Positions 12,876 to 54,264 of a stretch of 64,000 bases of DNA are shown here, piece by piece. A program made the position numbers and the translations under genes. Below the pieces are notes generated by a model that ran no database searches, was not told the origin of the DNA, and saw only the letters and a list, made by a program, of their open reading frames with translations. How positions within the stretch are numbered: position 1 is the stretch's first letter; the number at the start of each line of letters is the position of its first letter. The DNA comes from Patellaria atrata CBS 101060. Lineage: Eukaryota. Location: positions 682,001-746,000 of the forward strand of contig MU006095.1 of the NCBI GenBank assembly GCA_010093705.1, read 5' to 3'.

Positions 12876-14676
12876 ATGAGAAACAGTAATGACCTTCTAC
12901 CCTTAAGATTATCTGAAGCCTATGGAAATGAGGTAGCGATTGAATCAATGGATGGGAACGATCTACGATTTACGTTGTAGTGTGCGTGGGAATTCCAAAG
13001 CCTTGTAGTGATTGCATCTACGAGACGAAAATTGGAATCTTATCGTCCTCAGGAAGCTACGTCTTTATAGTCTCGAGATGGACGTAAAGTACTGTCAAGG
13101 CAATGAGATCTGGAACGCATTGTCGAAATCTGTTGTTGGGGGCTAAAAAGGGAAAAGGGGCCAAAGGAATAGTGGTTGATGTATGCTCGTCGGTGAGTGG
13201 ACCCTCAAAAGCCAACCCCCATTATATAGCTTGAACTTCTTGCTGATTAGCCATCTTCAAGAAGACTCGTTCAAAAGGAGAAATTGATCGTGTCTATTTC
13301 ATCCTTAGATCTGCATCCCATAACTATCCTTATGCATAATATCGGAACCGTCCATACTGAGGGTTGATATATATACGGATCGGTCCGCCTACAGTATGGT
13401 ATGTAGTGCGACTTCTACTATCCAAATCCTCCGTTATAATGTTGATTTATAGAGCATTAGTGCAATACAGATATTATATGTGGACGAAATTCGATGTCCC
13501 TCAATACATGGGGTCGAGTAAAGAAGGTCTGGAAAGGGTACAACTCCATGCTATGATTGAAGGGCTAGATTTTAGCTATGGAGGTCCCTTCCTATTGTAG
13601 CAGAAGGTTCGAACATGACAAGTGAGACTGCGAGAAATTCCTCTTCTAAAGGCAGGCCAACCGTGTTTATTGCTTTCATTCAACCTCTTCCAACATCTGT
13701 TCTGGCTAATACACGAGATGGTTTGCTTGAAGACATCAGCTGGAGCTCGTGTTGAAAAGTCCCACCTGACGCATCAGTTTCCATGACTGCTAAAAGTGTC
13801 CCGACGGCTGAGTAGATTCAAAGTTTCTTGAACTGAGGGAGAGTAATCATTTTGTCCATTGTCGTACGATAGAAGATGATGAATCCTCCAGTGAGACAGA
13901 CTGATTGATATCAAGAGACTTTAGACCAGCGTTCGAGTCTGATGTGTTATTCGTTTGCTAGGAGCATGTGCGCATAGGTCTTTTCTAGGACGATTCTGGT
14001 TTTTTTCTCCATTTCACATGGAAACGACTAGGTATAGTATATTGGACTTATTCTAGCACTAGAGATTTTGGATCAACTTTGTTGTAACATTCATGGGTCC
14101 ATAATGAGCGATACCGAACAACAGAGCAGTTTCCGGTTGTGAGGCTGTTTTTTGTTCCATCACTAAGTTAGCAAACCGCCTAGCAGAATAATCATTCTGG
14201 TTGGTTATGCCGGTCTGGAAATGCATCAAAACTGACCTCCGGATATATGCAAGATAAGGGCCTTCTTCGAGGCATAGCAGGACCACGCATTGGACCACAA
14301 CCCACGCTGAGATTTCGCCACCATTGTTGGAGTGAGGCTGTATCAATAGCTTCTGACCTTTTTAACTCGGACAAATCGGATCCTGTTGGTGACAGAATAG
14401 TATTGGTGAGAGATCGGTTCACTATACTGTCTTCAACTCAAAAGGCTGAATGGCTGCAGCCCAGCCTTGCGCAGGTAGAAAAATAAGAAGACAGCTAGGC
14501 ACAGACTAAAGATTGTAGTCTCTGAATCAAAACCTCTTTTCCAGCTCATGCGCTCTTTACAAACCTGCTGTCCTTCCTAGTATATCGGTATCACGCCCCA
14601 TATATTGCGAATAGTTCTTGTCATAGCCCTAAAAGTCATTTTTCGGAATACTTTAGCTCTAAAATGCAGCCCTACT

Positions 14677-25489: not shown

Positions 25490-26648
25490 TTACATGTTCA
25501 TGCCAGGAAGATGAGGGAGCCCTGTAGCGCGAGCCGTTAGCTTAGAACTTCTTTAAAAGTGATGCAGGATGACTTACATCCTTCAATGTCCTCATTGACG
25601 AATGATTTGACAGAGCATGCATTCATTTGGGCCACGCTCTGGGACCTGAGAGGCCTGTTGTTTTCACAGTTCTGGAACATGCATCCGGAGTCCATAGCCT
25701 GCTGGAGGGTATTGTCTTTCCAGCCGAAGACGTAATCCGCGTGGGTACCGTAGCCTTTGTTATCGCCATAGCTTAGGACGAAAGGATTCGGTTGACCTGA
25801 TTGCCACATAGAGTTGAACTGGGTCGTATCATAAAGGGTCTCGTACGCTAGCTGTGGCATGCGAACGGGATGCGAGGCTGGGCATGGACCGGCATTCAGG
25901 AAAGCCTCCTTCTGTGTGTTATACATATGAGATTGGTGATCCGGGCTATCAACATTCTTTCCGTCCCAGCATCTGTCCATAGTCAGCGATTGGCTACACT
26001 ACTAAAGGAAGCATCACTAACGAGGGGAAGTGGTGAACAGTCATGATGCCACCCCTGCAGGGCGATGTAGGGAAGTCTGGAAGCTCAGGGAATCTAGTTC
26101 CCTTATCCTGCAAGCAAACGAAACGAAGGCCTACGTGCTTCTTCGCGGCGTCTAATGAATCGGTTGTCGGGCTGCCAACCGTCATACGGAAGCCCTAAAG
26201 CTATTAGTGTCTTGTGATCGTACGATGAACTTCGCTGACTTACTTTCGGGAAGGCTGTAATCTTTTGGTTACCGTTGGAATTGAAATCTTGTTGTGTATA
26301 GTAGATAGTCATTCCACCTTTGATACCGTTAGGTAACGCAGTATTCTGCATGATCGGTACACGCTTATATGAGCCGTTTGTGGGATGCTTGAAGTACAAT
26401 GCGGCAGTCCAGTAGTTGGAAAAGTCATCCGCGAAGGTGCATGTTGTACATGAACCTTTTGCACCGATGTCGCCATCCATTGTTGGTGCAAAGACATTGC
26501 CACCGACAATTTGATGAACATGTGCGGAAGGAGAATTGCCAGGCTCAACGAGAGGATCAAGACGCTGGATACTGACACTAGAACATCCGAAACGAAGGGC
26601 AGCCTGAGAAGGCGCCGCAAGAGCGAGAGCGAGAGAAAGCCACTTCAT
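25490..26648 (-). CDS. Secreted DUF1996-domain protein (4 exons)
   Basis: Signal peptide, LRFGCSSVSIQRLDPLVEPG...HVHQIVGGN, DFSNYWTA, HHFP-CWDGKNVDSPDHQSH, CPASHPVRMPQ and HADYVFGW. Last exon WLPHLPGMNM* ends at 25490. Confidence 0.92.
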
Positions 26649-28083
26649 CTTGACAGAATAGAAGTCTATGATCTGTTCTAGCGACGGTGGAGGTTGCTGA
26701 GAAAAAAAGGACGGGTGCTCTCAGTTGTATTTGAATTCCCAGCTCATCATCCTGATTGAAGTCTTCTGTAAGTTGAAAACTTGCCGACGTTCAAGATACA
26801 AGGAATTGAAATGTTTTGTCCATCCTTTTATCTAAATGTTCGCGCACGACCAATGACATTCAAATCTTAAAGTTTCCCCGCATTTCCTTATATACCCTAG
26901 AAATCCTCGTGGAGTCTATATGGGCACGATGGGATAGAGATACCCTTGTTAAGATCTTGCCACACTAGCGCCATGGATTAGTATATTAGGGGAATATTAA
27001 CCGTCCTGTCCATTCCTGGAGCTTTGTAGAATTAGAAATCCGGGCACTCTTAATTGGAAACAACCCTGGCGGCACATGGATAACAAAATTGTAAAGTGCC
27101 GAAACACAACAGTGTAACGCCGTAGAAGGATAGATAGAATTTAGAGAGAAATATCAAGATATCCAATCAGACTTATGACTGGTCATGTGATCGAGCGTTT
27201 ACCTACCTTGTTTCAAGTCGATGAAGGGATCTTTGGGACCTCTCTCGGCTTTTGTGGAAGGGCCGTACTCGTACTACTTTCGATATACAGGGGTACATCA
27301 TCAACCTTGATGTGAGAGCGGCCGTAGTGTCAAATATGTATCGGTAGCATAAAAATCTCGCTGTTCTTAATGAAGACAAGCAGCTAGCCCACTAAAGGAC
27401 TCGCTCCGGCATTGGTGAGTCCTGAAAACCATCGACTGGTCTGCATGTCATCTGTACGACGGTGGTCCTAGGGATTCAAGAGAGAAATTTGGGTTCATGC
27501 GTCCTTCAAACACTGTTCGTGTAGAGAAAGGAATCTGTTTCGTATTGCTAATGTAGTGAGGTGGGACTCTGTATGACCACGTACTTGTAACAAGGTTTAT
27601 AGTTCTAACCGTCTCTCTACTAGCCTCGCCAAGTAACTTATTCCAACGTTTCTCTTATGATACCACAAAAGGTAAATATGAGAGTACACTCTTGTCTACG
27701 AACTCTTTTGGTATACCCTGCTTTCCGCTGCATGAGGACATGACTACTCCGTCCGCAGCTGGACTGTACAGATGATATCTCTCCCTTCCTTTTTTACTTC
27801 CATGGCGCATCCTGGATCTTTGAAATAAGCAGCTTGTTCTAGACGAGAACTACAAACTCTATGATCTAGCAGCAATTGAATCAAGCTACGGAGAACAAGC
27901 CCGCTAAGATACAATAGCCAAGTTGCTCAAGAGTTTCCACAATCAACTCGAAGCGAAACGTCGGTGACTATAAGATTTCTAGTGATGCAACTTTATCGAC
28001 AAATTAAAGCTGGTACGCCACGTGGGCACTCGTTCTTCGATTCCATATCTAATTTCATATCCATATCCCTCGCGGATGCGAAA

Positions 28084-29454: not shown

Positions 29455-32065
29455 TCAATGATACTGCGTCGGACCTTCCACCTTCCCAACCTTCTTTCCC
29501 AGCATCTCTGCCTGCCTTCCCAGCCGTTCCCAGTGTGTCCCCCAAATTTCCTCCCTCGTAAAATCGAGCCTATGTCCGCAACGTCTCCAGAGCACGTCCT
29601 CTCTCTTCACACCGTCCGCACAACAATGACCCCAGCAATCACCGAGGCGCGTGATGATCGACTCGGTGGGATTAGATCGCCGCGTATCGTCGATAATGCG
29701 CAGCATACTGGGGATAGCCACTTCGTGGAAGAGACGCAGTTGCCCGAAGAAGATGCTGTTGAGGAAGATGTAGTCGGGGAAGAGGCGTCGGGGGAGGTAG
29801 TAGATGTCTGACCAGCTACGCGGAGTTAGCACGTCGGACTAAATTACAAGAGTTCTCGGAAACACTCTTAGTTCGCGAAAGAAGAGTTTGGTATACTAAC
29901 CCCACACACCACTCAGTGGTGTTGATAACGTATCCCACGTTTAGATCTTCGAGGATTCGCTCACCGTGCATCGTTATCTCGTGCATACCCCACCAACCAT
30001 GCCACTCTGGATACTGCTTCGGTGTGTTCATGCAGAGATACCTCGGGTTCGGACTATCGGGAAACCATATGCCGTCAAAATCCATGTTCTGGAACCCGAA
30101 CGGGTCGATCCACGCGTCAAAGTGGAAATACAGCATCCCTTCGATTCCGTTATCTGGATCATCAAGAATCAGCTGCATAGTATCAGCCACTGCCTTGGTC
30201 GGCAGGTCCCCGATATTCCACCCGTCATGAGTCATGTTAAGGAAGTAAGCGTCTTCTTCTTCTCCGTTGTTGGGGAGGGTATGTTCATAAAGATGTGGGA
30301 TGCTATAGTGCAGAGAATGGAAGAACGGTTGGTAAGCTTCCATCAGCGGCATCCGCTCTTCGTGGGGGCTATTCCAACGGATGAAGGCGAATGTGTTCTT
30401 AAAGGGCGATTCCTGGTATTTAGGCGTTTTTGGGGTGGAACTGGCGCCGAGAGCCTCGACCTGCTTGAACTTGTTGTCTGGGGATTTACTGCCCCAGAGC
30501 GTCAAGTGGGATATTATCACAAGAGACACTAGGAGATTGGTGAGGAGTCCGATACCGCGAAGACGTCCCTGAAGCTATTAAAATCATTCTGTTCACAGAT
30601 GTTAGGGAGCACCTACCCCAGGAGCGAAAGAAGAGATTGTTCGCATGACTTTCGAAGAACCACCAAGCAAAGTTGAAGTTGCTTGAATTGAGTTCAAACC
30701 TCCCTTTGGAGTCGCTTCCATATACAACCACGTAGCTAAGAATACGACCATGGATCCAGGAATAACGAGGGGGTTGAACCAAACGTGGAAGAGAATAGGC
30801 GACACATAAAGTAAGATGGACGTCGCAATTGCAGTCGCAAGACATTTAACCAGAGCATCAGCGTCTACGTTGAATGGGTTAGTTGGGCTCATTGACATAT
30901 ATTTTCAATCCCGCATGTAGTCACTTACATTTGTATACAGCCGTAATAGCAAGACCAAAGAAGACATTACTGATGATTACAATGATTGCTCCCCAGTTAT
31001 GGTATCCTACGAAAAATCCAGGCTCTTCTGGGTTGACTATCCGAAGCGTGAAATGGATTACACTATTAATAGTAACACCGCACGCATACAAAACCATGTT
31101 ATCGGAATGTAAAGAAGCATCTTGACTCTTGATCAGACTCTGATTATACACGCTAGAAGTCGCGCTCAGAAAAGTCTTGAAAATAAGAATTAGGTATGTA
31201 GACGCAGCATATGGAGCGCCAACACCAGGACGGTATTGGGTCACGACCACACCGGCGATCTTATTGACGTCCATTTCAGTATATGGACTCGGAAAAGGAA
31301 GGGTGGAATAACGTACCTGTAAGAAAATAGCTACCCACTGAGTCTTTACTATTCGGGTTCCTACACCGTAATACAATACTAGAGCGGTGATCAAGGTGAT
31401 TCCAGACTTAATCAACTGTATCGTTCCTGGGTCCGCCAGTCGATACAAGACGAATACCTATGGCTTGTTAAAATATCATCGGAAGTGGGAGGAATTCTGC
31501 CATACGCAATTGTTGATCAGCGCATAAAGCAAAGCAAGCTGTGCAAAGCCGTACTTGGTCTTTATCGGAACTTCATGTATGCAATAGCCGAGAAAATCTC
31601 GGATCGTGAAGTCGGATTTTGAATCCCCGGCTAGTACATATGCCGCAGGTCGCTCATCGGTTACTTCGCTTGTGAAACTCGACGATTCGCTCAACTCCGC
31701 TGGAGGGTCGATTAACACTTGCTTCTCATCAAGGGAGTCTCGCTCTGGCTGAGGTATTGAGCGATACTCGGTAACTGGCAGCGGATTCCTCCTTTTACAT
31801 TCGCCGTAAAAGAAACAAGTCGAGAGAACAAGCTTGAAGAACTCAGATATTGCTACTGATGCGGAAACTGAAAAGCTATATCTGCAATGTTGTGAGATAC
31901 TATTAGAAAAAATAATTAGGCTGTTACTTACTGCCCCTGGTGCTGAGCCGCTTTATAACAGATCCCGATGCCGACTTGAATAGCGATTAAGGCTATTGCT
32001 GCAACATAGGCTGGGTTTAGTTTCCCTCGAATTGATGTTAGAGTATAAGAAAGGGAAACCGACAT
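29455..32065 (-). CDS. Nucleotide-sugar transporter (SLC35A/UDP-Gal transporter-like) fused to a C-terminal DUF288/STELLO-like putative glycosyltransferase domain (~750 aa, 7 exons)
   Basis: Start MSVSLSYT at 32065. Transporter motifs: ISEFFKLVLS, LALLYALINN, DPGTIQLIKS, QWVAIFLQ, GLAITAVYK.ADALVK. A 42-nt intron (30575-30616) joins in frame to one more TM and a soluble domain (FAFIRWNS, YFHFDAWIDP, GWSDIYYLPRRLFPDY...FHEVAIPSM). Confidence 0.8.
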
Positions 32066-32311
32066 TGTGTAGTATCTGCGCCTCCACTCTCGCTAGCAAG
32101 TACGTGACTAGGTGTTCATATGTTTCGAAAAGATCTAAGAAATCTCAAATCAACACCCTTGCTTTTGTCCGCAGGTGAGGAATGCTCAATATCGCGTTGC
32201 GGTTCGCGTCTAATGTCTAGTGAAATGATGTCAGGGAGCTTATCGGATCGCATTCTTCATCGCGTTACACGAAAGGTACAGAATTCTAGAACTACAAAGC
32301 ATGAACTACGA

Positions 32312-34728
32312 TTAAGAATGATCACCATAATTGTAAGCAGCTTTCCAAGCCGCTATAGATCCCCAATCCTTATACTGGGAAACTCTAACCCCAAAGAAGG
32401 GGTGGGATTCGCAAGTGAGTTCCCAAAGGATATCAACGACTCGAAGCTCGTTGTTGCGAGGTCTGCTATCCTTGCGTTCACAAGAGAAATCTCTAGAGCG
32501 TAATAAACGACGGAGTTTCGAAGCAGCAGAACTAAAATCTGACGCTTCGAGAAAACTCCAACCGCCACAACAGAAGTCCGATGATAAAAAAGACCCATAG
32601 GCGATATTTGAGACCAAATTATCGTAGCTAAATGACACGTAGCTTTTCCTCATTGCGTCTACTAGGTCTGGCCGTAAAGCACTTTTAGATAGTTCGTTCG
32701 AAGTATCGTCCTTGACGATTCGGGATACAGTAATATAGTTACCACCGGAGACTACATGGGCAAAGTCATTATCCGCATCCTTGATAAAGATAGGACCTTG
32801 AATATCTTTGGTTGTGATAGCATCAGTGATAGTCTCAACAACATCAACCGTTTGTTCTTCAGCGTAATAGAACTCGAGAAGACCGCATTTTCGAGGGCCA
32901 AGTAGATCAAAGAGCGATTCGAAACTCCCATCATCCACACAATGCTCTTCAATCGTCGATCGTAATACTATAACCACTATGCGGGAGACGTTTCTGACAT
33001 CAAGATTACTGATACAGTCGACAATCAGGGGTCGCCCATTAGACTAAAAGGATTGGTCAACTTGAGGAGCAATTAAGTCGGATAAGTGAACTTACATTGG
33101 TGGTTAAGAGCTTCACTGCTCCATCAGGATACACCTCATCCATGTCTGGTCCTAGGGCAGGCAAAATGACCGTAATTCCTGACCCTGTCTCATGATAAGG
33201 TCTATCCAGATCTACCGGTGACTCTAAAATGGTCGGAGCAGTCTGGAATCTCATAGGCCACATACTTTTGACAACCCTTTGAAGACCGGCCATGAGACAT
33301 CTCTTTTCTTCTATCGTAGTCATATACGGCAAAATTCGTGCAACGCAAAAGAATTCAAAAAGAGGAAGGACATCCCAGAATGAATATTTTTGGTAGGCAA
33401 TGATAATCTTCTCATGAAAGAGAGCGAGAAAGGTGACACCTCTAGCAAGCTGATCGGGGGAAATCTGCGCGACAGTGAAGAACCAGTGATGACGAACATC
33501 TTGCAACAATTTTGCGATGTCTTGCAACGGTGATTCCTAATAATCATCGTTAGCCTCGTGAGCTTGCATTGTGATATGTGCTCATGTCTTACGACGAAGC
33601 AATCAAGGAAATCTAGTACACAAAATTCTCGATTATCCGTATCTGCAAGGATATTCAGCAAGGTTAGGTCGCCGTGACAAGTACCCAGTGGTACCTCTGC
33701 ATCCGACAAACAGTTCGTGTAATAACCTAGGACGAATTCAAATTGAAGGTCAATGATCTCAATGTCAAAATCAGTGAGCAGTTCGGATGAATGAAGAGCC
33801 ATTCGGATATTCCGGGCCTTTGCGTTGAACTGCGGCATGATTGTGTGTAGAGGAACGTTTTTAGTCTTGGTGAGCATGTTATCAACAAGTCCAATGGCGG
33901 TGTCAATGAACCAATCCCATGTTGACTTATCCTTCTCTAGAAGAACGGTTGTCGTATCGTGGAATGGAATATACTCCATATCAACGACTAATGTATCTTG
34001 TTCCTCAGGGATGTGTGGGGACCGAATCCCATATATTTCAGGCGTGCTAATAACAGACTGAAGGTGATCAGTACGACACCAAGCAGAAAACTCGATTTGC
34101 TTCACAATCTGCTTTAGCAGTCTGTTACCATCTTGTTTTGCGCCGCTGAATGCTTGTTTTCTTACTGCCCACATGCTCGAGGTTAGCCGTCGAATAGTGG
34201 CTTTGTTGACGTATGATTCAGCTGATTCTAGTAGAGAAAAGTACGATGGTCTGCGTTGCGGCCATCCTTCGCGTGTCGGCAACATAGGCCTGCGTAATGC
34301 TTTTTGAGCTTGAGATGCTCTTGAGCCGATTATGCCGAGGGAGATTTCAGACGGGTTCGGGGACGGTGAGCGCGCATGTGCTAAGACGGTCTGCATATTC
34401 TCAGACCCCCATACTGTAGCCAAATCGATCAGTAGAAGAAATGAGATATGTGCTAGAGCTTACGTTTATCCTTTGCGGAAAGATATACAAGATCTAGATC
34501 CGTCTCACATTCGGCAATGCTAATGATCTTGACTTCACAATCAGACCTACTCACCCCCTTTAAGGTAGGGACGTGCGATTCTGCTTCCTTCTGTCCAATG
34601 CTACCATTTCGAAAATGGGCGGGTTTGGATATTTTTGTAGCCCCATTTGCGTTGAATGACTGAGTATCCAAGTGTTGAGAAAATGAATCAGAGATTGTAA
34701 CACTAGGATGTATTTCGTGTCCAGGCAT
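32312..34728 (-). CDS. APH/choline-kinase-fold phosphotransferase fused to a degenerate nucleotidyltransferase-like domain (752 aa, 4 exons)
   Basis: Introns 34414-34463, 33537-33592 and 33044-33095 give one continuous ORF. Kinase motifs: AVRK, RLLKQIVKQ, DMEYIP, CHGDLTLLNIL, VLDFLDCFV|ESPLQDIAKLLQD. C-terminal domain: ILPALG..., GPIFIKDADNDF, KSYV, FCCGGWSF, YKDWGS. Confidence 0.85.
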
Positions 34729-34981
34729 TATGACTGAACAACAACAGATTGAAAAACATATGATGAGTGTTGACTGATAAAGTGTATACTCATTTATCAT
34801 TCCCCCAAATAGTCGCGAGGTTGGTACGCTGCGCGTCTAAGGTATGTAAATACCTGTTGTGTAACATCCTTCCTACATGTAGTACCTGCGCGTGGAGTTC
34901 TCAAAATTTTTAAAAAGGGATAAAAGGAAATTTTGGAGAAGGCCAAACTCCGCTAATCATTCTACCTCTTTCTCAGACATC
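34729..34981. promoter_or_regulatory. Putative bidirectional promoter (253 bp) shared by the two divergent cluster genes
   Basis: Head-to-head ATGs at 34728 (-) and 34982 (+). CTGCGCGT occurs at 34829-34836 and 34886-34893. Confidence 0.55.
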
Positions 34982-36823
34982 ATGGGAGGAATCACTCAAC
35001 ACGCAACCGAAGGTATCCACCATGCCCATTTCCAGACCAGTGGAGGGAAAGGCATCATTGACTTCCTCCGTACCTGTTCAAAGTTCGAGCTCAGTTGGTT
35101 CATAGAGCAGACACTTGCGCATTTCCCTCGTGGTCGCGTTCTGAAGTACCCAGATTTGAAGGTTGACCTTGACAAGATCCGTATCGATGTGGACCAAAGG
35201 ATCTTACACTGGGAGCCAGAATCAGAGGATGAGATTTCGAACAATATCATTGAAAATTTCATTTCATCTCTCTTCAAAGCTCTCGTGAATGGGCAGGTTA
35301 CGGCTGAGAGACCCCGACGCGTACGTGAGAGTATCGCGGCAATAGTGGTGTTACAGAAGATTATCTGGAAGTTTGATGGTCTTGTCGCAAAGTGCGACGA
35401 AGAAGTGTTTTGGAATGATACAGTTTCTCGAGAAGATAGATCTAATGGTCATTACCGATATCGGGTAGAAAAGTTACTTAGGCCTACTATTTCAAAGGAA
35501 GCAACTAGCACGCTCGGATATCTCCTCAAATCTATGAATGAAAAGATTGATGGAAAGGCGCTGGAGGATGTTCCTCGAGGTCCCGTCCCAGATAGCACGG
35601 CACCTGTACCGGCCCCTACGAGGGATGCTGATGGTTCGTTCTCACATTCTCCCAACGCTCAGGTCGTGACACGGCCACCGTTGGTCGAAGGCACTCCTAG
35701 AGATGGAACATCAACGTTGATTCTACCGTGCGCTGGCCGTAGCTCTCGTTTTCCGGGAACCAGACCGAAATGGATTCTAACTCAGCCCAACGGCCGGCTC
35801 ATGGTGGTTGACTCTATAGCCGCCTTAGAACTGCAAAAGGTTCACCGAGTTGTTTTGGGAGTCCTCAAAGAACACGTTGATAAGCATTGCGGGTCGGATG
35901 TTGATGCCATAATTCGAGGTTTTGACGACGGTCCTCCTCGACTTCGAGAAATCGAAATATCTGTTGTTATTTTAGATTTTGAAACCCGCGATCATGTGCA
36001 GACGGTCGAATGCATCGTCCGAGCGGCTAATGTGCAAGGGCCTATCTTCATGAAAGATTGCGATAATAGCTTTCGATGTGATATTCCCGGTCGGGATGGT
36101 GTTGCTTTGTTTGAGGTGAGAAAAGACCTTGAATCTGTTTCCAATCCTGCTGCCAAGAGCTACGCTACGTTCGACAATGCAGGCATCATCACCAACATCG
36201 TCGAGAAGGTGATGCTTGGCTCGCACTTCTGTTGTGGCGGCTACTCATTCGGCGATGCTATCGATTTTCTATCCTACACTGAACTTGCGCGGAAATACCA
36301 AAAGAGCACTCGCACCGATGACCTCGATCTTTCCGTTTCCGATGTTATCTGGCTGAAAATGGTCTCTCCTTTCTCGCCCAGGACCCCTTCCAAAGGGTTT
36401 ATGGCCATTCCCGTCTTTGACTACGAGGACTGGGGCACACTGGTGGCCTGGCAAGCCTACACAAGGACTTTCAGCACCCTCTTCGTCGATATTGATGGTA
36501 CTCTCGTCAAGAACAGTGGGAAGAACTTCAAACCTTCCTACGGTGACATGCCGGCGCTTGAAAAGAATGTTATGGCTCTTCAGAAGCTGTATGCTAAAGG
36601 CCGTACGCATATCATTCTTACGACAACACGGCCTGAGGAATACCGCGACGTTACTATCAAACAGATGAAAGATTGCGGCGTCCCGTATCATGGTATCGTA
36701 TTTAGTCTTCTCCATGCAAGGAGGGTTGTCATCAATGATTATGCAGTCACTAATCCTTACCCGTGTGCCGTAGCTATAAATCTCCAGAGAAATGGGGAGG
36801 AACTAGCGCAACTCCTAGTATGA
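34982..36823 (+). CDS. Kinase remnant, sugar-phosphate nucleotidyltransferase (GT-A fold) and HAD (EcbF/BcbF-like) phosphatase fusion; intronless
   Basis: NTP-transferase signature ILPCAGRSSRFPGTRPKWIL, then GPIFMKDCDN, NIVEK, FCCGGYSF and YEDWGT. C-terminal HAD motif I LFVDIDGTLV, motif II LTTTR and RRVVINDYA. Confidence 0.88.
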   Translation: MGGITQHATEGIHHAHFQTSGGKGIIDFLRTCSKFELSWFIEQTLAHFPRGRVLKYPDLKVDLDKIRIDVDQRILHWEPESEDEISNNIIENFISSLFKALVNGQVTAERPRRVRESIAAIVVLQKIIWKFDGLVAKCDEEVFWNDTVSREDRSNGHYRYRVEKLLRPTISKEATSTLGYLLKSMNEKIDGKALEDVPRGPVPDSTAPVPAPTRDADGSFSHSPNAQVVTRPPLVEGTPRDGTSTLILPCAGRSSRFPGTRPKWILTQPNGRLMVVDSIAALELQKVHRVVLGVLKEHVDKHCGSDVDAIIRGFDDGPPRLREIEISVVILDFETRDHVQTVECIVRAANVQGPIFMKDCDNSFRCDIPGRDGVALFEVRKDLESVSNPAAKSYATFDNAGIITNIVEKVMLGSHFCCGGYSFGDAIDFLSYTELARKYQKSTRTDDLDLSVSDVIWLKMVSPFSPRTPSKGFMAIPVFDYEDWGTLVAWQAYTRTFSTLFVDIDGTLVKNSGKNFKPSYGDMPALEKNVMALQKLYAKGRTHIILTTTRPEEYRDVTIKQMKDCGVPYHGIVFSLLHARRVVINDYAVTNPYPCAVAINLQRNGEELAQLLV

Positions 36824-38991: not shown

Positions 38992-41421
38992 CTATGACTT
39001 CACGTCGACCTTCTCCGTTGGTGTGGCAGAGCCGCTTCCCTCTACTTCCCTCACTTCTCCATGTGTAACACGACCAGGCTTCCTTTTCCCAGTTATATCT
39101 AAAAAGATTGCCTTGAACGTCCTGGCACTTGTTGCGCGTCCCTCCCACAATGGATAGATCCCGACACAGAAGCTCGAGAAGAAGAGCCACATAATACCGA
39201 CGACAACCCAGCCGGTGAAGAACTTCTTGCTGAAAATGTAGCCAGATCCATACATGGGCATAGGCCAGAGTACGAGGAGACATAATGTCATGACGACAGT
39301 AAGGATGCGCGCAAACCTTGAGGCTTTCTTGAGTTTGGCTTGCTCTTCAGCCTCGTCTGATTCCGAATGTACACCGCCAGGTACCAGCTCAAGATCAACG
39401 TGAGCGGCAGCGGCAAGATCATGATCATCACCGCGGCGAATCGCCTTCATGCTCACCCAATCGTACGTTGGGGTTTTAAGTGTGAAGCTAAGAAGAGGAA
39501 CGAAGATCAGGGGTGAGAGCAGAGCAACAACGTTACCTGCCAACATGGGGTTGCTAGATCAAAAGTCAGCGCTGATAATTATGGAACGCATTGGAATTGC
39601 TTACTTGGCACCAGTGGTTGCAACAGAGAGTTCACCGCCTTCCTTTTGGGCTGTTACCAACCATGCGATGAGAGAGCAGGCAAGACCTAGAGGAGGTGTG
39701 AAAGTAGCTGCAGCCCAGCTCTGCTTGCTCCAGAGAAGCGTTAAACTGGCTGGGAGCACAGCAGAGGATATGATTACACCCATGAGTAAGTAGAGATAAC
39801 CCATGGAGATCCCAATATAGTACAGAGCAGTACTGAAGCCGGCCATTGCTAAAGCGAAGCCAACGACACAAGCATGGGCCATGTTGATCAGACGTCTACC
39901 GCTAGCTTCAGGGTTGAAGTAAGTCTGATAGATATCATAGGTGAAGATAGAGGATACAGCAATAAGTTCGGCAGACATAGCTGATGTTACAGCCATGAAG
40001 ATCAACAAAAGGGTCGCTGCAGCGCCGCCACTGCCAAGCATAGCGACAGCAGCGGAAGGAAGAGTTAAACCAGCCGAAACATCCGCAGCTGGCAGGCGGT
40101 TGGGGTAGGTTGGGAATACCGGATTATCCTCAAGAGCAAGACAAGCGAGGCCCATGGTGGTAGCAGCAAGCCAGGGAATGGCAAACCAACTGAGACCACC
40201 AATGACATATCCGGGAAGAGCATGGACCGGGTGAGCAGCAATGGCTTTGTTGTAATAACCTACAGGGGTTAACAGAGAAACTCGAAAATTGGAATCAAAA
40301 TACTATACCATTGTCGCAGAAAACTGTTCCGAAGTTTCCTACAATGTTGATGACAAAGAAGATGGCACCCTCTTTTGATCTCATAGTAAGATAGCTGCCA
40401 CCGGCATTGCCCTCGACTGGGTGACGGATCGCAGCTTCTTGCAACTTCTCCCAAACTGCACTAGGGCTACCAAGGATGTCGTTGGTCGCATATGTAGTGA
40501 ACGCGAAGGTGAGGATAATGATGAGGATGACGACGGTGTGGGCATAGTCCGTAAGGAATGTAGCTTTGATACCACCAAACATGGTATAGATAACGACACC
40601 GACTGGGAGCAGGAAACAAGCTGCAGCGGTGGGAACGCCTGTGAGGGAGGTGACCACAGCGGAACCACCAGTCAACAACATAGAAGTGACCAAGATGTTT
40701 GTCATCAGGCCGAAAACAATGAAAACACCGTGGGTCACTGTGCCATAACGAGCCCGGATAACCTCCAGGAACGTGTGAGCGTTTGGAGCTCTGCGTTTCA
40801 ATTCGATGGCAAGCGTCGCGAACAGAATAACCTGTACGGTAGCCCCTGAAGCATACCAGAATGGGCCGGAGACACCACTATAGGAATGATTAATTGGGGT
40901 TTCAGGCTATGAGGCTAATTGCTGTACTCACTAGTTGTACGCGACGGACGAGGATTGAAGAAGCGTAGCAGCCCAGGTCCAGGACGAGACGACCGCAGAT
41001 GCAACAAGACCAGTCTTGACAGTTCTACCAGCGGTACTGAACATCTCAGACGTCTGAACTTCATAGTTGTATCTGTACCATGTCAGTCTTGACTAATCCC
41101 TGCTTATGTCATTGGACGAATGTAGGTCTCCGCCCTCCGGGATCGCTATAGATTTCCGGGTGGGATATTGGGGACTTAAAAAGCAAGATGTCGTCTCCAG
41201 AGCGATAGTTTGCAGAGAAATATCTTTCAAGTACAAAGGAGAGAGCTCTGTGTAGCACGTACCGTTTGAGGATGAAGGTGGTCAAAATCATACCAAAGCT
41301 ATACCATCTGTTAACTGAAATTCTGATCATATAATATCCTAGGAACTTACGCAAAGAGAAATCCTAGGCCGATGATAACGCCATAGCCAACGGCCTGACT
41401 GAGGGGCGGGTTTGTAGCCAT
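38992..41421 (-). CDS. DUR3: Urea/polyamine active transporter (sodium:solute symporter family)
   Basis: [83 protein letters not shown] and [21 protein letters not shown]. Multiple introns. Confidence 0.95.
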
Positions 41422-44582: not shown

Positions 44583-46703
44583 CTAACTCGCCGTCCCGTT
44601 CGTCGGCGGCGTGAAGAAAGTCTGCTGATCCACGACCAACAATCCTGCAATACTCGCACTGGTGAGCGTCGAAATAGCGCCCGTGATAAGCGCCGAAACG
44701 GCGAGTCTGCTGACGTCGCCACTGCGGCCGGGGGAGATCTGGGAGAGCACACCGATCTGGGTGCCAAGGGAGCCGAGATTGGCAAACCCGCAAAGGGCAT
44801 ATGTCGCGATGAGGCGAGAGCGCGGGGAGAGGTCGGCGTAGGCGGGGTCCTGTTGGAGGGCGAGGTAGGCGACGAATTCGTTCTGTTGTGAATGATCAGT
44901 ATTTCATCTTGGAGTCACTGCGTTTTATGAGAGTTGGGGAAGGACTTACGATGATGAGCTTGATTCCGATTAGGCGGCCAACGGGGAGCAGGTCTGGACG
45001 TGGGACGCCGAGTAAGAAGGCGATGGGGTAGCAGACGTAGCCGATGATGAGCTCGAGGGTGAGGTCGTAGTCGCCGTCGAGGTTGATGTAGCGGCCCCAC
45101 CATGTTAATAGGCCGTCGACGAGTCCGAGAAGCGCGATAATACAGAGGAGCGTCGCGACGATCATACCGGCTATCTTGAGACCGAGCCACGCGCCATTAG
45201 CGAAGGCATGCAGGGAGTTAGCGGCACGGTGCTCGTCGTCATCTGGAATAACGACACGACCAGCGGTTAGAGTCTCTTCTTCCTCCGGGTAGCGGAGCTT
45301 GCTGATAGCGAGGGAAGCTGGGATACTCATAACACAAGAGGAGATCAGAGCTTGGGGGTTGATGCCGAGACCGATATAAGCGACGAGGACGGAGCCTGCA
45401 ATAGTGGCGAAACCGGAGCACATGACTTGATGAAGTTCGGCCATGGTAAGATGGGCAACGAACGGCTTGATCAACATAGCAGATTCACCTTGTCCGATGA
45501 AGGGGGATGCGGCAGCAACGACAGCCTCGGCACCGGACACGCGCATGCTCCAGAAGAAGAAGACGGCGAACTTGCCAATGAACCATTGGAGGAGACCCCA
45601 GTAGTACAGCAGCTGGACAAACGCGACGAAGAATATGATTGGGGGTACCACACCCGTGAAGAACCAGGGGAGCTGGGGTACGGTTGCATCAGTGAGGAAA
45701 GTGACACCATCGTTAGCGAAGTGCAGGAGTTCACGAGCAAGCTCGGAGATGAAATTGAAGATGTCGTAACCGGCCTGGGTACGGAGGACGAAAAGAGCGA
45801 CAATGAACTGAATGAACATGCCAACGATGACGGTATGCCAATTGATCTTCGACCTGTTCCTGGAGGTGAGCCAGAGGACAAAGATAAACACGATGAGACC
45901 GAATAAGCTGACCGCACGGTTTGCACGCGTGTTGTCGAGACTCTCCTCGCTGGCAAAGGCACCAATGACGATAACGCCGACAACTAGAGCCGCTGCAAGC
46001 GGAATACGAAGCTTTGGTGGAGTCAATTCTGCGACTCTTACACCGGTGTGACGCCATACAAGCTTCACGGGCTGCATAACGAGGCTGACGGGAACGTAGA
46101 GGGTGATCAGACGGATGGTGATGCACAGGTACAACAGGAATGGGATAACCCAGTTCTTGTCACTACGGTGCTCAACCAAGCTAGCAATCCACCAGCTTCA
46201 AAATAGACATATTAGTATATGATCATTAAAAATCGACAGATCAACTTCTTGGGTCAAACCTACCCAGTGAAGAACAACCAGATGAACAAATGGAAAAAGA
46301 TGCGCCATTTCCTGTAGAAGTTGGAGACGGTGTGGGTTTTTGGGTCTTCTTCTGGCTCCATGTTGTTCCTTGTCGGACTGATGCTACCCTTTTCCGCATC
46401 ATATGCGTCTCCCATCATCTCTTTCTCCTGAGCTGCACCATCCTTTTTGTCGGAATGAAGTCGTCGGTGAAGTGCATGATCATTCGGATCCTGATCAGGG
46501 ATTATGCTCTTTTCTGCGGTCGTGCCCGTTGTATACGCAGGTTCGTCTGTCCTGCCCCTCGGAGCACTTGAATCGTGGTGAAGATGTGTATGTTGATGCT
46601 CATGGCTGATGTCGAGAGCGGGATCGCTATTTCTAAAGACGTCACGCTGCGGGGAGGCATTATGGCTCCGCTTCGGCTCCACTGGGGTGAAGCTTTCAGC
46701 CAT
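44583..46703 (-). CDS. cntA: Concentrative H+/nucleoside cotransporter (CNT/SLC28), 3 exons
   Basis: INWHTVIVG, SGAEAVVAAASPFIGQGE, MCSGFATIAGS, SKLRYPE, IGIKLII|NEFVAY and ATYALCGFANLGSLG. Stop TAG at 44583-44585. Confidence 0.95.
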
Positions 46704-48512: not shown

Positions 48513-49737
48513 TCATTCTTTTGGCCCTTCGATGAGGATCTTAATTCCCTTTCCGGCCTTAACATCTTCAAACGCCTTCTCTGCATCTTCAAATTTGACT
48601 TGACCAGTGATCAGTTCTTTCACACTCAGTCTTCCGCTACCGACTAGATCCACAGCAAGGGCGTAGTCTCCACTACCGTATCTGAAGCTACCTTTGAGAT
48701 TCAGCTCTTTGACGCACATTGCAACAATTGGGAATTCAATGTCTGGCTTGCCCATACCTAGTCCCATTATCAGCTTTGCGATTATAGATCCTGAGAGAGG
48801 GCTGGAACTTACCCCCCTGAACATAGGTACCACCAGTCCGTAAGGCGTGAATTGACGTCTGGATGCAAGGCTCTGCACCACTGGCATCGATTATTACATC
48901 AGCACCAACTCCCAAGTCACAGTCCTTTATCAGTCTCTTCGCACTATCTTCAGCACTCTCCTTTTGACTCCTGAATGCGCTTGATGCCGCATACTTCAGT
49001 GCGAATTGCAACCTCTCTTCGTTGATATCCACCGTCACAATCTTGGTCGCGCCAAATGCTTTTGCAACAGCACAACACAAGAGCCCCACCGGGCCAGCTC
49101 CAAATACGACCACCTTGTCTCCCGGCTTGATGCCAGCTTGCTTGCAAATATGCACCGCAACAGCAGTAGGCTCAATCAGCGCCCCCTCTTCTAGCGACAT
49201 GCCCTCGGGAAGCTTGTAGCAGAAGTCCTCGGGTAGACTGTAATACCGTGCAAGAGTACCATCGAACGGTGGGGTTGCAGCAAACTGCATGTCGAAGCAA
49301 AGATTGTACTTCCCCTCTCTACACCGCACGCATCGTCTGCAGGGTACACCAGGCTCCATCGCAACCCTATCACCAACCTTAAGACTTTTGACATTTTCAC
49401 CAACCTCAGTGACCACGCCCGCAGACTCGTGGCCCAGCACCATAGGGTTCTCGACCACGAAGTTGCCGATGCGACCATGGACCCAGTAGTGGACATCGGA
49501 GCCGCAGATGCCGGTGTATTGCACGTTGACGATGACATCGTGGGGTGATTTGAGGGTCGGCACAGGTCGATCTTCAAAAGTCACCGCTCCCGGCTTTTCG
49601 AGCACGAAAGATAGGTTTCTGGAGGAGGTGGAGGAGCCGTTAGTCTTTGCTTTCTTGCTGGATCTGGGCGATGTGGGAGCTGGCGGGGCATCCGCAGTTG
49701 AACGCCGTGCTGACCTGCGATTTTTGGATTCTGACAT
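48513..49737 (-). CDS. xdhA: Xylitol/sorbitol dehydrogenase (zinc MDR family), 2 exons
   Basis: GICGSDVHYW, MVLGHESAG, CRRCVRCREGKYNLC, FAATPPFDGTL, FGAGPVG, VQGG|MGK and GSFRYG. Confidence 0.93.
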
Positions 49738-52700
49738 ATTTTTAGGGGCCAGATTGGACTTGATAGGTAAAAGAATTGTGCAATTGAGTTTTCCTTTCTA
49801 CGGATATATACGCTGGGGGGATTTTTCCATTATGTACTGCTGGATTTTTCTTCTAGAGCTCCTCTGCCTTAGTTCTACCTACCTGCCCGTTCATGACGAA
49901 ACTGGACGAGAAGCCCCGCTATAGCACACGCCGAAGCTCTCCCGGCCGGTAGAATGCGACTCAAGACAGCTCTGGCAGCACCAAGAGCTATCAGTAACAG
50001 TGTGACCACATCAATTCAACCGGAGCTTGATTACTGGCTATCAAAGCTACAGATCAAAAGCGTTGAGGTGACTTTTGGTTCGTTTCTCCTCTTTGCAAAA
50101 CGCACACCGACTTCGCATCATGATTGGGACAGTCACTGGGATAATCTAAAGTTATGCAGATTCGAAATTGAGAGCAAGTAATCGAGAGAAGTGAACAATG
50201 GCTAAGTATCATGCCTATCAGTATTTCTTATTTCCTTGCTCTGTCGATTTGTGGACTGAATATTTGCGCCGAAAACTCTTCAGATAGAGCTAGAGCTATA
50301 AATCTCCTGTCTCTTGCCCCAGCGTGGATCGCTATGGTCAACATCATACTGATATCCAACTTTCCGTACAGAAGAGCCAGAAATGTCAAAGGTACTCCCA
50401 ACCGCACGCGCTACCTCAGCGTATAGACATTCTTCTTGTACGGTCCGTCTTGAGCGATACTGGTGCTTTCAACTTTACTATAGCATGCAACTCTCAAAGT
50501 TCCCAGTCTGAACTACTCCAAATTTCATTTACAGCAAGAATTGAGTCAAAGAAAGCCCAAAATGTATCATAATACCGCAAAAACATGACCCGAGTGGCCC
50601 TTGACCAAACAGATGCAGAGCTTTACGTTGTAGAATCGGTGGGATATACTTGAAGCCGGGAGTCCAGCTAGCCACAAGAGAGAAATTCGCTATTTTTACC
50701 ACTACAATAACCGTTATAGCTTTGTGCGGGGCTTTAAAACAGCTCTAGATCTAAGGATTCTCGGCTAGGTGTCTAACTACACTGCATTTGGACGGCTCTC
50801 ACTTATTTCTCGAACGTCAATTAACACTACTATACTCTATACCTAATTGAGTACATGAAGCAGTTTGACATCGGATGGTAGGTACTCAATCATTGATAGG
50901 TATCCATTTCTGCTCTATCTAGCTATTGGTGTTTTTGAGTTGGTCTCAGCCACCGATTGTTCCAGCCATCAGATCTACTCTTAACATCACCTTATGAACC
51001 TTCGCCCCCTAGATATGTTGTTCACAGAGACTTCCTTGCTATCGTTATGCGCGTATACCTACAGATACTCACACCACTTCGGTCGCTCACTCTCTCCAGA
51101 TCACTGTCACCTGTCCAGCCAGGCGCTACAGTTCGGGCCACGAAAGCACACTTTCAGTATCATGTCAGCGACAAAACTACTTAAATCCTGCAGAGAGACC
51201 AGGGTGATTGATACGGATCGTCCTACTAAAACTCATTTCTTAGTAGAATCATTTTCGTTCTTCTTGCAAGATCAAGCCTTCTTCATTCACGATACGATCC
51301 TGTGCACCTAGCCGTATAGGATGAAATCCCACTAATAAGACTTAATCTATCTGTATGCCGAATCGTACATCTTTTTCAACAACATACCCTTATAGAGGCC
51401 CCAGAAGTGCAAAAACAGCGAAGAGATCGCGGACGTAGTCCAACGGAAGGCTCAAGACCTCCTTCATGTGCTCAAGACCGGGACCCCGTTTGAGACGTCC
51501 AAATGGCCCTCAAATCTTCTTGAGACCTGCAAAGAGATTGGCACGATTAGTGCTCTGAAAAATCTTCTACCAGCACCATCTGCGACTAACGATAGCCTGC
51601 AAACATTCAAGAATTTTGCGAGAAGCGATGGTCAATGTCGCGACTGTCTTCGATATCTCATACTTGGTTCGATAGGCAAAAGCTCCTGTGAAATCAATGA
51701 TTATTACGGTTTTAGTAAAATAACGAACCAAGTAAAGCGATTGTCTATCGCGAGTCCTGAATACATGCTAACATCATCTAGAATACTGTCGATATGGTCA
51801 GAATGGCGCTGCTTGATCTCTTACTTCGGATAATTGAAGTTCATATTGACAGGTTAGTTTACCAAATCAGACATTCCGAAAACGCCTCAGTCTTATTATT
51901 AACTATAGCACAATTGCCTTGCAAAATGCAGAGAACGCTAAGAAGAGGTCAATACCCACGGAACGCGATGCCAACGATGAGCCGGTGATGAATCTGGAAC
52001 CTTCAAAGGTACTAGGACAGGGTCGTAATTTCGTGGAGAACTTTGAAATGGAGCTTATCTCCGATCGTAAGCTTAGCCCTACAACTACTGAAGTCCTCAA
52101 TTGACACGTTAGGTTTCAAACGAGCACTCAAAGATGTGGAAGACTTAAATATTTACAATTCCAATGCGCAAAGGAACTTTCGCATCAACGTCTTTTTTGT
52201 CCACAACTACTTCTAAGTAGGGGGAACACCTTCAATCATAGACAAGCTTCCATCCATCGATTCTGGGAGGATTCTATCCATCTTGCAGTCATGGCTGGAG
52301 CATACAGTTGCAAAAGCTGAAGGCACGACTTACGCGAATGTTCTCCAACAGATGTTGGAAGCTAAATAACGTGGCCAGGGTCCAGAGACCGCAGTTAAAG
52401 ATCATAAGAAATTTTGCCAAGGTCTTGCACGACTCTTAGCACCTATCAACGGGCTCTATTTGCCAGATCTCAAATTAGATCCCTCCCTATCTGTCACCGT
52501 TAAGTATACACTCGAGTCACTCTATCCACAGGTTGATCATGTGTTCAGGAATGAGCCCGCGTTCCTGGGTAACTTACCGGATGAAACCATTCAGATAAGT
52601 CTTGGACTCAATCAAGATTGGGGTTATCAAAACAAAAACTTCAAGCATGCGGTTGGAGCCTCTCTTGGTACTGCTGATATTACAAAGGATCGGTGGTACT

Positions 52701-53038
52701 ATGATGGCGCGCAATTCCCTGACGTCTACGATGACCGTGAGTATGGCCGAGCGGTTGCGACCGAACTGGAAAACCTATCCTATCTTCAGGCAAGACCTCA
52801 GGCATTTGGAATGCTCAAAAAAAGACATCGAATAGTACATCACTTCATCGATCCTCAACCCTTCAAAGTTCCAAACTTACATGTCAAAGATGGCTATCGC
52901 AAAGACCAACTTCCCAATCTCAGTGATTATGACCGAATAATCTACCCAAATGGCCCGAAGAAACCTGTGCCGTGGGAACAGATCCTTCCCGCCAATTTAG
53001 ACAAAAAGATTCAGACCATAATCGAGTCCGGCAATGGG

Positions 53039-53491
53039 TGTTTTGCCCCCGGGACTATGGTATGGACAGACACAGGAGAAATACCAATCGAAACACTTAG
53101 AGAGCATGATAGGATCTTGACTAGAGCAATTTCAGGCAAATACGGACTAAAATCTGACGAGGTTGTTGCGTTACCTGTCGAAGGTGGGAAGGTAGTTCTT
53201 TACGGCTTTAATGGCCAGCGCCCATTTTTCACCAGAAATCATGTTTTCCACACCACCACTGGACTAAGAGCAGTGGATCTGATCGCTGTAAAGATGGAGA
53301 ACCTGTGGCTTGAGGTTGGTAAATTACGCTGTGGTAATACGTTGCTATATACTAGCGACGGACGGTTCTGCGAGCATTTCACCATCTGGAGTCTTTTGAA
53401 TATTGTTGAAGAGTGTGATCATGTCTAGGGTATACACTTAAGAGAAAGCTTTCGAAGCTACCACGCTAACGGTTACCTCGTTCATCCAGAC
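53039..53491 (+). other. Hint (Hedgehog/intein) autoprocessing domain, ~151 codons, no homing endonuclease
   Basis: Block A G|CFAPGTMVWTDTGEIPIETLREHDRILT; block B FFTRNHVF (TxxH); block F/G HV*GIHLRESFRSYHANGYLVHPDY, where TAG at 53426-53428 replaces the Y of VY. Confidence 0.85.
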
Positions 53492-54042: not shown

Positions 54043-54264
54043 AGAAGAAGTAGAAGAAGAAGAAGAAGAAGAAGAAGAAGAAGAAGAAGAAGAAGAAGAA
54101 GAANNNNNNNNNNNNNNNNNNNNNNNNNNNNNNNNNNNNNNNNNNNNNNNNNNNNNNNNNNNNNNNNNNNNNNNNNNNNNNNNNNNNNNNNNNNNNNNNN
54201 NNNAGAAGAAGAAGAAGAAGAAGAAGAAGAAGAAGAAGAAGAAGAAGAAGAAGAAGAAGAAGAA
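54043..54264 (+). repeat. (GAA)n microsatellite flanking a 100-N assembly gap (54104-54203)
   Basis: Pure GAA tracts on both sides of the N run, just after a GTACGT donor at 54008. Confidence 0.97.

Follow-up and report, generated by a model that had tools for sequence, protein, structure and literature searches.

A three-gene cluster in the fungus Patellaria atrata with the predicted parts of nucleotide-sugar synthesis, Golgi import and transfer, and its relatives in bacterial surface-polysaccharide loci

Kinases, HAD phosphatases, and nucleotidyltransferases (NT) occur together in several known pathways. In the routes to nucleoside diphosphate (NDP)-heptose, they act in series. In the AmgK/MurU/MupP route to uridine diphosphate (UDP)-N-acetylmuramic acid (MurNAc) of Pseudomonas, an APH-family anomeric kinase, a sugar-1-phosphate nucleotidyltransferase, and a HAD phosphatase act on one sugar. 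The cytidine monophosphate (CMP)-sialic acid route of animals combines a kinase, the HAD phosphatase NANP, and CMAS with the transporter SLC35A1 and the Golgi sialyltransferases. Here, we describe three neighboring genes, A, B, and C, of the Dothideomycete Patellaria atrata CBS 101060, whose products figure in database records as hypothetical proteins. They lie in a stretch of 64,000 nucleotides (contig MU006095.1, positions 682,001 to 746,000), hereafter called the window. An original prediction, made from the sequence of the window, had read them as a cluster for the synthesis, import, and transfer of a nucleotide sugar, built from capsule-type enzymes. Our computational analysis supports this reading in part, and it is the best one available. 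We consider it reasonably probable that the three genes form a glycan-decoration cluster whose cytosolic half descends from a bacterial surface-polysaccharide cassette.

The closest system is a bacterial module in which a kinase gene accompanies a gene for an NT fused to a HAD phosphatase (about 350 residues). It is found in Limnohabitans, Roseateles, Psychromonas, Rhizomicrobium, Helicobacter bilis, Bacteroidales, and others, and we found no biochemical characterization of it. The module encodes the same three activities as the fungal cluster in adjacent genes. Its NT-HAD proteins are 33-37% identical to that of gene C over about 350 residues, and its kinases are 19-28% identical to that of gene B, with HGDLT..N and DFLD common to both. 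The bacterial kinase differs in standing alone, and the bacterial NT-HAD protein in lacking an N-terminal extension. To this plan, the fungal genes add the extension of gene C, an N-terminal segment in gene B, a degenerate copy of the NT (or of the NT-HAD pair), introns, and a linked gene for a transporter fused to a domain of the GT-A fold.

Mapping the three proteins back to the window with tblastn placed the genes at 29455-36823, with all the named domains at the coordinates given in Table 1. The claim of three genes some 250 bp apart that encode a kinase, an NT, a HAD phosphatase, a nucleotide-sugar transporter, and a transferase-like part, presumed lumenal, was borne out: the gaps measure 246 and 253 bp, and every domain assignment holds. 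Profile and structure searches identified the first four, and the transferase-like part takes a GT-A fold in the model of a homologue. Two elements had been overlooked, namely a second NT-like domain in gene B and the N-terminal extension of gene C. The 253-bp region between the divergent genes B and C is a candidate shared promoter.

By its fold and its intact catalytic motifs, gene C encodes a sugar-phosphate NT joined to a HAD phosphatase, from which both activities are predicted. The protein has 77 homologues in the protein database. An alignment of 25 sequences revealed an invariant P.AGRSSR.PG..PKW loop, invariant KD.D..F and EK motifs, and invariant HAD motifs D.DG and ND. In the loop, LPCAGRSSRFPGTRPKW, the invariant residues are A251, G252, R253, S254, S255, R256, P262, K263, and W264; in the HAD domain they are D503, D505, G506, N585, and D586, and T548 is nearly so. 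Profile searches against the sequences of the PDB matched the NT domain to the Vibrio 'NDP-sugar pyrophosphorylase' 4evw (E 0.014), whose IPMAGMSSRF..PKYML aligns with the loop of gene C, and to IspD (E 0.071). The same searches matched the HAD domain to the phosphatase domain of Pnkp1 (E 1.4e-6). The AlphaFold model of the protein has a mean predicted local distance difference test score (pLDDT) of 76 and a predicted template modeling score (pTM) of 0.75. It gave 408 Foldseek matches at E <=0.001, headed by 4evw_A (E 1.7e-10, TM by target 0.73) and followed by GlmU, RmlA, and inositol-1-phosphate cytidylyltransferase.

The Pfam scan found no NT family in the window protein of gene C, and its match to HAD_PNKP was sub-threshold (E 7e-4, 20.2 bits for a cut-off of 27.6); the bacterial homologues pass PF12804 (36.9 bits for a cut-off of 27). 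The N-terminal extension, of about 225-240 residues, matches nothing in Pfam, and the bacterial homologues (353 residues; P0074-P0077) begin at the NT domain. The HAD domain is of the capless PNKP or HAD-IIIA kind, to which GmhB also belongs. In the NCBIfam scans, TIGR01689 (EcbF/BcbF) was listed neither for gene C nor for its bacterial homologues. We also considered a ribofuranosyltransferase dependent on phosphoribosyl pyrophosphate and joined to a phosphatase, as in CriT/CrpP of Bcs3, and rejected it, since the model has the fold of an NT and no Bcs3 chain appeared in the PDB searches; the accessible part of the Bcs3 source describes CriT as phosphoribosyltransferase-like and places it after the HAD domain (PMC10299916).

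The NT-HAD fusion is common in bacteria, with 62 genome loci and at least 222 confirmed metagenome stretches. We searched the surroundings of the 141 loci with an NT-HAD match using local profiles. A gene B-type kinase lies within 4 kb in 123 of them (60 of the 61 genome loci), and in the genome loci it is nearly always adjacent to the NT-HAD gene and on the same strand. SDR epimerase or dehydratase genes occur within 4 kb in 35 loci and SIS isomerase genes within 8 kb in seven; a GT-A domain of the gene A type was found near the NT-HAD gene in three fungal contigs only. Among 142 open reading frames (ORFs) from 12 loci, Pfam identified glycosyltransferases, Wzx-type flippases, Wzy_C (O-antigen ligase/polymerase), WavE, acyltransferases, and capsule export genes as neighbors. 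The bacterial pair sits in O-antigen and capsule loci, and the pairing is near-obligate. The kinase partners reach E 1.2e-11 with the APH family of Pfam, and their Choline_kinase matches are weak.

To place the fungal genes among these relatives, we built a tree, in line with the phylogeny against bacterial homologues that had been suggested for the cluster. Its 106 rows comprised 21 of the 73 long database matches, the 4 short ones, 58 genome loci, and 23 metagenome loci; 3 genome loci with frames of less than 300 residues had been dropped. In this tree, which has a midpoint root only, the 21 eukaryote-type rows fall together in a single clade (SH-aLRT 100) that lies among bacterial branches. 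The simplest reading of these sequences would be a single acquisition, presumably from bacteria, followed by duplication and fusion.

Gene B consists of a conserved N-terminal segment, a kinase of the APH/choline-kinase type, and a degenerate NT-like domain, and two of its introns can be seen in the sequence (GTAAGA...TAG and GTAAGT...TAG). Two sequencing runs compared with the window consisted of contigs with no joint at the introns and probably represent DNA of the source organism. In the PDB profile search, the LicA-type choline kinase 4r77 was the best match of the kinase (E 1.7e-5), followed by TP53RK/Bud32 and the aminoglycoside kinases (APH). The kinase exon alone stays below the Pfam cut-off for APH (E 2.5e-4, 21.3 bits for 23.2) and matches Choline_kinase at E 0.03; for the full-length protein, P0101, PF01636 is precomputed in the database. 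The H, G, D, T, N, and D of HGDLTLLN/DFLD are invariant over 13 fungal and bacterial kinases. The gene B alignment comprises 12 proteins, the window's own and 11 others, all with the kinase part, and the beta3 lysine motif WAVRK is invariant in all of its rows.

The second domain of gene B has no match in Pfam and is found by tblastn against gene C orthologues at E 1e-34 to 6e-35. It retains KDADNDF, KSY, FCCGGWSF, and Y.DWG. In the alignment, its G-loop reads LPALGPDMDEVYPDG where gene C has P.AGRSSRFPG, and IAYG stands in place of IVEK. The altered loop is itself conserved (T470, V471, A475, G477, K490, L491, and L492 are invariant in the 12 rows), which suggests that the domain is under selection, yet unlikely to be a nucleotidyltransferase. 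From these replacements, we read it as a non-catalytic or re-purposed partner that has lost the nucleoside triphosphate-binding loop. A complex prediction for this domain with the NT-HAD part of gene C scored 0.00 with no controls run, which speaks neither for nor against a heterodimer. Three orthologues (P0105, P0109, and P0110; two of the chytrid Irineochytrium and one from the European Nucleotide Archive, ENA) carry a tail of about 90 residues beyond the NT-like domain (alignment columns ~920-1010), which begins with THWIDLE or TSWVELE where gene C has TLFVDIDGT, with IDLE for DIDG. This tail resembles a HAD remnant and suggests that gene B arose from a kinase fused to a whole duplicated NT-HAD gene.

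The protein of gene A, P0078, is named 'UDP-galactose transporter' in UniRef. Its transporter part matches Nuc_sug_transp of Pfam (PF04142, E 1.5e-21, 77.3 bits for a cut-off of 27) and the structure of the CMP-sialic acid transporter, 6oh4 (E 1.6e-24). Such transporters usually have ten helices, with both ends in the cytosol. P0078 has an extra, strongly hydrophobic helix after the transporter (residues 416-434), and the usual topology with one more helix would place the C-terminal domain on the lumenal side. From the model of the homologue P0092, this domain is assigned to the GT-A fold. With VIA-align, this model reaches Z 12.2 with CHPF (9q8z_B; root-mean-square deviation 4.0, 207 residues aligned), Z 12.0 with C2GnT (2gak_A; 4.1, 233 residues aligned), Z 11.1 with GfsA of A. 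fumigatus (8yrl_B), and 10.9 with XylT1. In the ESM Atlas, the domain of the window protein itself stands beside clusters of the STELLO family (PF03385), with a TM of 0.70 and a feature score of 0.96. The invariant HFDAWxDP follows strand 130-135 of the P0092 model and is not a classical DxD motif. STELLO and the Golgi enzymes of families GT14 and GT31 have the GT-A fold in common with this domain; gene A differs from them by the fusion to a transporter. This fusion is of interest in itself, as it would build donor channeling in the Golgi into a single protein.

A pathway can be proposed from these parts. The kinase of gene B would phosphorylate a free sugar or a sugar phosphate drawn from central metabolism. 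The HAD phosphatase of gene C would trim the product to a mono-phosphate, and the NT of the same protein would couple the sugar phosphate to a nucleotide, giving a sugar linked to an NDP or a nucleoside monophosphate in the cytosol. The transporter part of gene A would move this nucleotide-sugar into the Golgi, where the GT-A domain, tethered behind the extra helix, would transfer the sugar onto a wall or secreted glycan. We infer the order of the steps, the nature of the product, and the use by gene A of what genes B and C make. By analogy, the order could be kinase, phosphatase, and NT, as for heptose, or phosphatase, anomeric kinase, and NT, as in the recycling of MurNAc; both are possible. 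A nucleotide-sugar as the product would agree with the NT-HAD fusion, with the near-obligate pairing to a kinase, and with the SDR genes that are often nearby.

Comparison with the described pathways shows how far these analogies go. The parallel with NDP-heptose (GmhA, HddA or HldE, GmhB, HddC or HldE), drawn in the original prediction, extends to the logic only: the kinase of the cluster is of the APH type and not of the GHMP or PfkB type, the SIS isomerase is restricted to the seven loci mentioned above, and no SIS or SDR match was found among the scanned window ORFs of at least 110 residues. The AmgK/MurU/MupP route, to which we liken the cluster by general description only, is one of cytosolic recycling with no transporter or transferase attached. 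The CMP-sialic acid route resembles the cluster in that activation occurs outside the Golgi and is followed by SLC35A-type import and lumenal transfer. It differs in that the cluster has no synthase or aldolase, in that the enzymes are related by fold class only, and in that the transporter and the transferase of the cluster are one polypeptide. A dedicated nucleotide-sugar supply coupled to Golgi transfer is a known principle, and the parts that would serve it here are not known in fungi. We found no description of a fungal cluster of such layout in the open-access literature.

We then looked at the linkage of the three genes in other fungi. The search with gene C gave 80 metagenome loci, and five of them are on fungal-like contigs (53-58% identity). 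In four of the five, A, B, or both lie beside gene C, in other orders and orientations. In one contig (L065), all three genes are neighbors and read C> <B A>, as against <A <B C> in the window. Another (L068) has genes C and A, and a third (L064) has genes C and B and then ends. In the fourth (L072), gene C adjoins a partial match to the C-terminal third of the GT-A domain of gene A. Gene C and gene B are also both present in Irineochytrium. As a separate observation, L072 encodes at 6754-7611 (-) a kinase of the canonical APH family (Pfam E 5e-14) that differs from the gene B type; it lies 1.5 kb from the partial gene A-like match and the gene C homologue. The linkage that the original prediction looked for in other fungi was recovered in these four contigs, and B and C occur together in four assemblies; it fails in the fifth contig (L063), and the gene A family is wider than that of B and C.

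Several points weigh against a single pathway and against the identity of its parts. In L063, gene C has neither A nor B in the 2.3 kb upstream and 8.8 kb downstream. For Microthyrium, Trichodelitschia, Stipitochalara, and one ENA assembly, the contigs that hold B and C are equal in length, which indicates the same contig and not adjacency. The gene A family roughly follows taxonomy across the Pezizomycotina, including Fusarium, Colletotrichum, Paramyrothecium, and Cordyceps, and none of these four names appears among the 77 matches of gene C or the 12 of gene B. The presence of gene A in Sordariomycetes without listed B or C suggests that it is probably able to function in their absence. The window proteins score below the Pfam cut-offs for the NT, HAD, and APH families. 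The GT-A fold was modeled on P0092, which is 43% identical, and not on the window protein; the best Foldseek matches of this model are all GT-A enzymes but weak, with B3GNT2 first (E 6.4e-3). The GT-A domain has no match in Pfam, where STELLO PF03385 is absent at E up to 1 for both P0078 and P0092, and it has no sequence-level match in the PDB. To these points should be added that the bacterial lead to the sugar, treated below, is unconfirmed.

One might thus suppose that the genes do not belong to one pathway, gene A being an ordinary Golgi transporter-glycosyltransferase that uses a common nucleotide sugar, and genes B and C a cytosolic pair of bacterial origin for salvage or metabolite repair. 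The Sordariomycetes with gene A and without listed matches to B or C would fit this, as would L063 with gene C alone. So would the tree of gene A, where the three cluster-linked copies are scattered and three label changes are needed, which indicates that they are not a special subfamily. The link of A to B and C is not universal. Against such a separation, A adjoins C or B in the window, in L065, and in L068, and the gene orders differ among them, which suggests selection on proximity rather than inherited synteny. Moreover, the bacterial module is found in surface-glycan loci and not in salvage operons. We regard two separate pathways as unlikely, and return to the reading of a single glycan-decoration cluster.

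The donor could also be something other than a nucleotide-sugar. In the manner of LicA/LicC, genes B and C might make an NDP-alcohol or another phospho-head-group donor (with choline, ethanolamine, glycerol, or ribitol), and gene A would then import it and attach a phospho-substituent instead of a sugar. This agrees with the best solved relative of the kinase being the choline kinase 4r77 and with its weak Pfam Choline_kinase matches, with the resemblance of the NT domain to IspD and to inositol-1-phosphate cytidylyltransferases, and with a transporter of the CMP-sialate type. Such a route needs no HAD phosphatase, yet every homologue has the HAD joined to the NT, and the SDR epimerase or dehydratase genes by the module in 35 of the 141 loci also speak for a sugar. 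The C-terminal domain of gene A has the GT-A fold, like the Golgi glycosyltransferases; phosphotransferases of the LicD/fukutin type have another fold. We find a phospho-head-group donor quite improbable, and keep a nucleotide-sugar as the product.

A more distant bacterial system, in which the HAD belongs to TIGR01689, may bear on the sugar itself. One capsule locus of E. coli has a trio of genes for a 248-residue 'GT2', a 123-residue 'capsule biosynthesis phosphatase', and a 525-residue hypothetical protein with HGDLCFSN. The trio recurs in a second E. coli K locus, in the O78 O-antigen cluster, and in four of five further Campylobacterales loci. Profiles made from the fungal and bacterial proteins match its components (kinase E 1.5e-6, NT E 1.1e-9, HAD E 8.6e-4, with a second NT match at E 3.8e-10), which points to the three enzymes of the cluster being distant homologues of the HAD, kinase-fusion, and NT proteins of E. 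coli and Helicobacter. The NT of the trio shares the PMAGxSSRF..PKY signature of 4evw, and the kinase proteins of the trio and of the cluster alike have additional sequence outside the kinase part. The two systems differ in that the HAD and the NT of the trio are separate, the kinase is at the C-terminus of its fusion, and the fungal HAD falls outside TIGR01689.

The original prediction had likened the cluster to capsule enzymes with a HAD of the EcbF/BcbF type. The capsule part of this comparison stands, given the pairing with the kinase in 123 of the 141 loci, in polysaccharide loci, and the existence of the trio in bacteria; the assignment of the fungal HAD to the EcbF/BcbF family does not. 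In five genomes with an NT-HAD locus, TIGR01689 had no match in four, and in H. bilis it matched at a different locus. The trio of H. bilis has a 136-residue HAD, a 431-residue frame that overlaps a 184-residue frame with HGDFCFSN, and a 247-residue protein starting IVIPMAGLSSRF..PKYML. The occurrence of both module types at separate loci in this species indicates that they are not interchangeable orthologues. As for the surroundings, one locus of this H. bilis genome (L015) holds a kinase, an SDR, an NT::HAD, and a SIS gene, and the other (L144) holds a BcbF-type HAD, a kinase fusion, and a 4evw-like NT beside a radical-SAM gene. In E. coli O78 (L152, NZ_CP104523.1, 10150-12503), the trio lies between wzy and wzx, beside a WavE-family gene, and its members are a HAD of 125 residues, a 'nucleotidyltransferase family protein' of 540, and a 'glycosyltransferase family protein' of 244.

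Trios of this kind may be linked to fructose. According to the accessible text of PMC13552107, mutation of bcbE or bcbG deprives P. multocida of its fructose side chain, and bcbF is predicted to act together with these genes. Deletion of kfoE removes fructose from the E. coli K4 capsule, as far as the accessible parts of three sources tell (PMC8858990, PMC3673904, PMC7925653), and HS1.08 of C. jejuni is needed for the fructose branches according to the part available of PMC7901785. The identification of the trio with BcbE/F/G or KfoE is an unconfirmed lead, drawn from the name of TIGR01689 and from gene order. We tried the three E. coli loci (L145, L151, and L152) as K4 and rejected them: two belong to group 2 capsules and the third is the O78 cluster, none with chondroitin genes, so KfoE was not identified. 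Among 201 Campylobacterales genomes, TIGR01689 had six matches, in frames of 132-371 residues, and none was an 849-residue all-in-one fusion like HS1.08. None of the open-access papers that we found described a nucleotide-activated donor of fructose for capsules. By analogy with a distantly related bacterial cassette, fructose is the sole experimental lead to the sugar of the cluster.

The same systems raise the idea that one of the NT-like domains is itself the transferase: the degenerate domain of gene B would then use a glycan or a lipid-linked acceptor in the cytosol, as perhaps in the bacterial fructose cassette. For the main chain of P. multocida, bcbABCDI are enough, and only bcbE/F/G are credited with the fructose branch (accessible text of PMC13552107), the single 849-residue gene HS1.08 of C. 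jejuni is assigned the transfer of fructose (available part of PMC7901785), the folds of NT and GT-A proteins are akin (Z of about 8-9 for NT structures against the GT-A model), and the altered loop of gene B is kept in 12 of 12 rows. We hold this to be very improbable, as the gene B domain is a paralogue of the NT of gene C and not of the N-terminus of the bacterial kinase fusion, the NT-HAD profile has no match to the 525-residue E. coli protein, the closer bacterial homologues have a stand-alone kinase with separate glycosyltransferases in the locus, and the fungal cluster already has a GT-A domain on gene A.

The reading of a glycan-decoration cluster can be extended into a more specific and rather doubtful proposal. 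Some fungi (three Dothideomycetes including Patellaria, one Leotiomycete, lichen-forming fungi, and a chytrid) might have taken up a bacterial capsule or O-antigen cassette and duplicated and fused its parts, which in some Pezizomycotina would have come to lie beside a Golgi importer-transferase. They might use it to decorate wall or secreted glycans with a sugar new to fungal glycoconjugates, the best candidates being fructofuranose and other ketoses or rare sugars; the donor would be a nucleotide-sugar of a chemistry not yet elucidated for any organism.

Table 1. Positions of the three genes, their domains, and the regions between them in the window.
Feature	Position	Strand	Remarks
Gene A (P0078, 752 aa)	29455..32065	-	several introns; 100% tblastn pieces 32065-31931, 30862-29900, 29814-29458
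Gene A extra transmembrane helix and GT-A-fold domain	29458..30574	-	invariant SPFKN..RWNS, HFDAWxDP
Gene A transporter part (SLC35A / CMP-sialate-UDP-Gal type)	30605..32065	-	Pfam PF04142 and PDB match
Spacer, gene A start to gene B stop	32066..32311		246 bp; from mapped coordinates
Gene B (P0101, 738 aa)	32312..34728	-	tblastn pieces 34728-34465 (100%), 34414-33593 (99.6%), 33043-32315 (100%)
Gene B nucleotidyltransferase-like domain	32315..33250	-	last ~270 residues; paralogue of gene C NT
Gene B kinase exon	33593..34414	-	VRK lysine, HGDLTLLN, DFLD
Region between divergent genes B and C	34729..34981		253 bp, start codon to start codon
Gene C (P0001, 613 aa)	34982..36823	+	single exon; 100% tblastn, residues 1-613, at 34982-36820
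Gene C N-terminal extension	34982..35656	+	partly helical in model; no family match
Gene C sugar-phosphate nucleotidyltransferase domain (predicted)	35657..36466	+	LPCAGRSSRFPGTRPKW, KDCDNSF, VEK
Gene C HAD phosphatase domain (predicted)	36467..36820	+	DIDGT, TTTR, NDY

Around the cluster, the window holds genes of other kinds. Some 3 kb away from gene A is a two-exon DUF1996 gene (25540-26720, -; Pfam E 2.6e-34 and 2.5e-30). Downstream of the cluster are a gene of the sodium:solute symporter family (38995-40906, -) and a concentrative nucleoside transporter gene (44899-46197, -), and a zinc alcohol dehydrogenase is found at 48739-49797. ORFs with matches to a HET domain (12198-12896, -), an F-box (6853-7884, +), and a Hint domain (52370-53425, +) are ordinary fungal genes, unrelated to the cluster. 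The assembly has a gap of 100 N at 54104-54203.

The sugars of fungal walls and glycoproteins are thought to derive from a short list of nucleotide sugars. Standard cluster finders, which rely on anchors of the polyketide synthase or nonribosomal peptide synthetase type, would miss a cluster such as this one. It would also make it possible to study, in a eukaryote, an enzyme cassette that occurs widely in the surface-glycan loci of bacteria. If the proposal is true, the cluster would add a new component to the fungal surface, one that would be relevant to lichen symbiosis, stress tolerance, and immune recognition.

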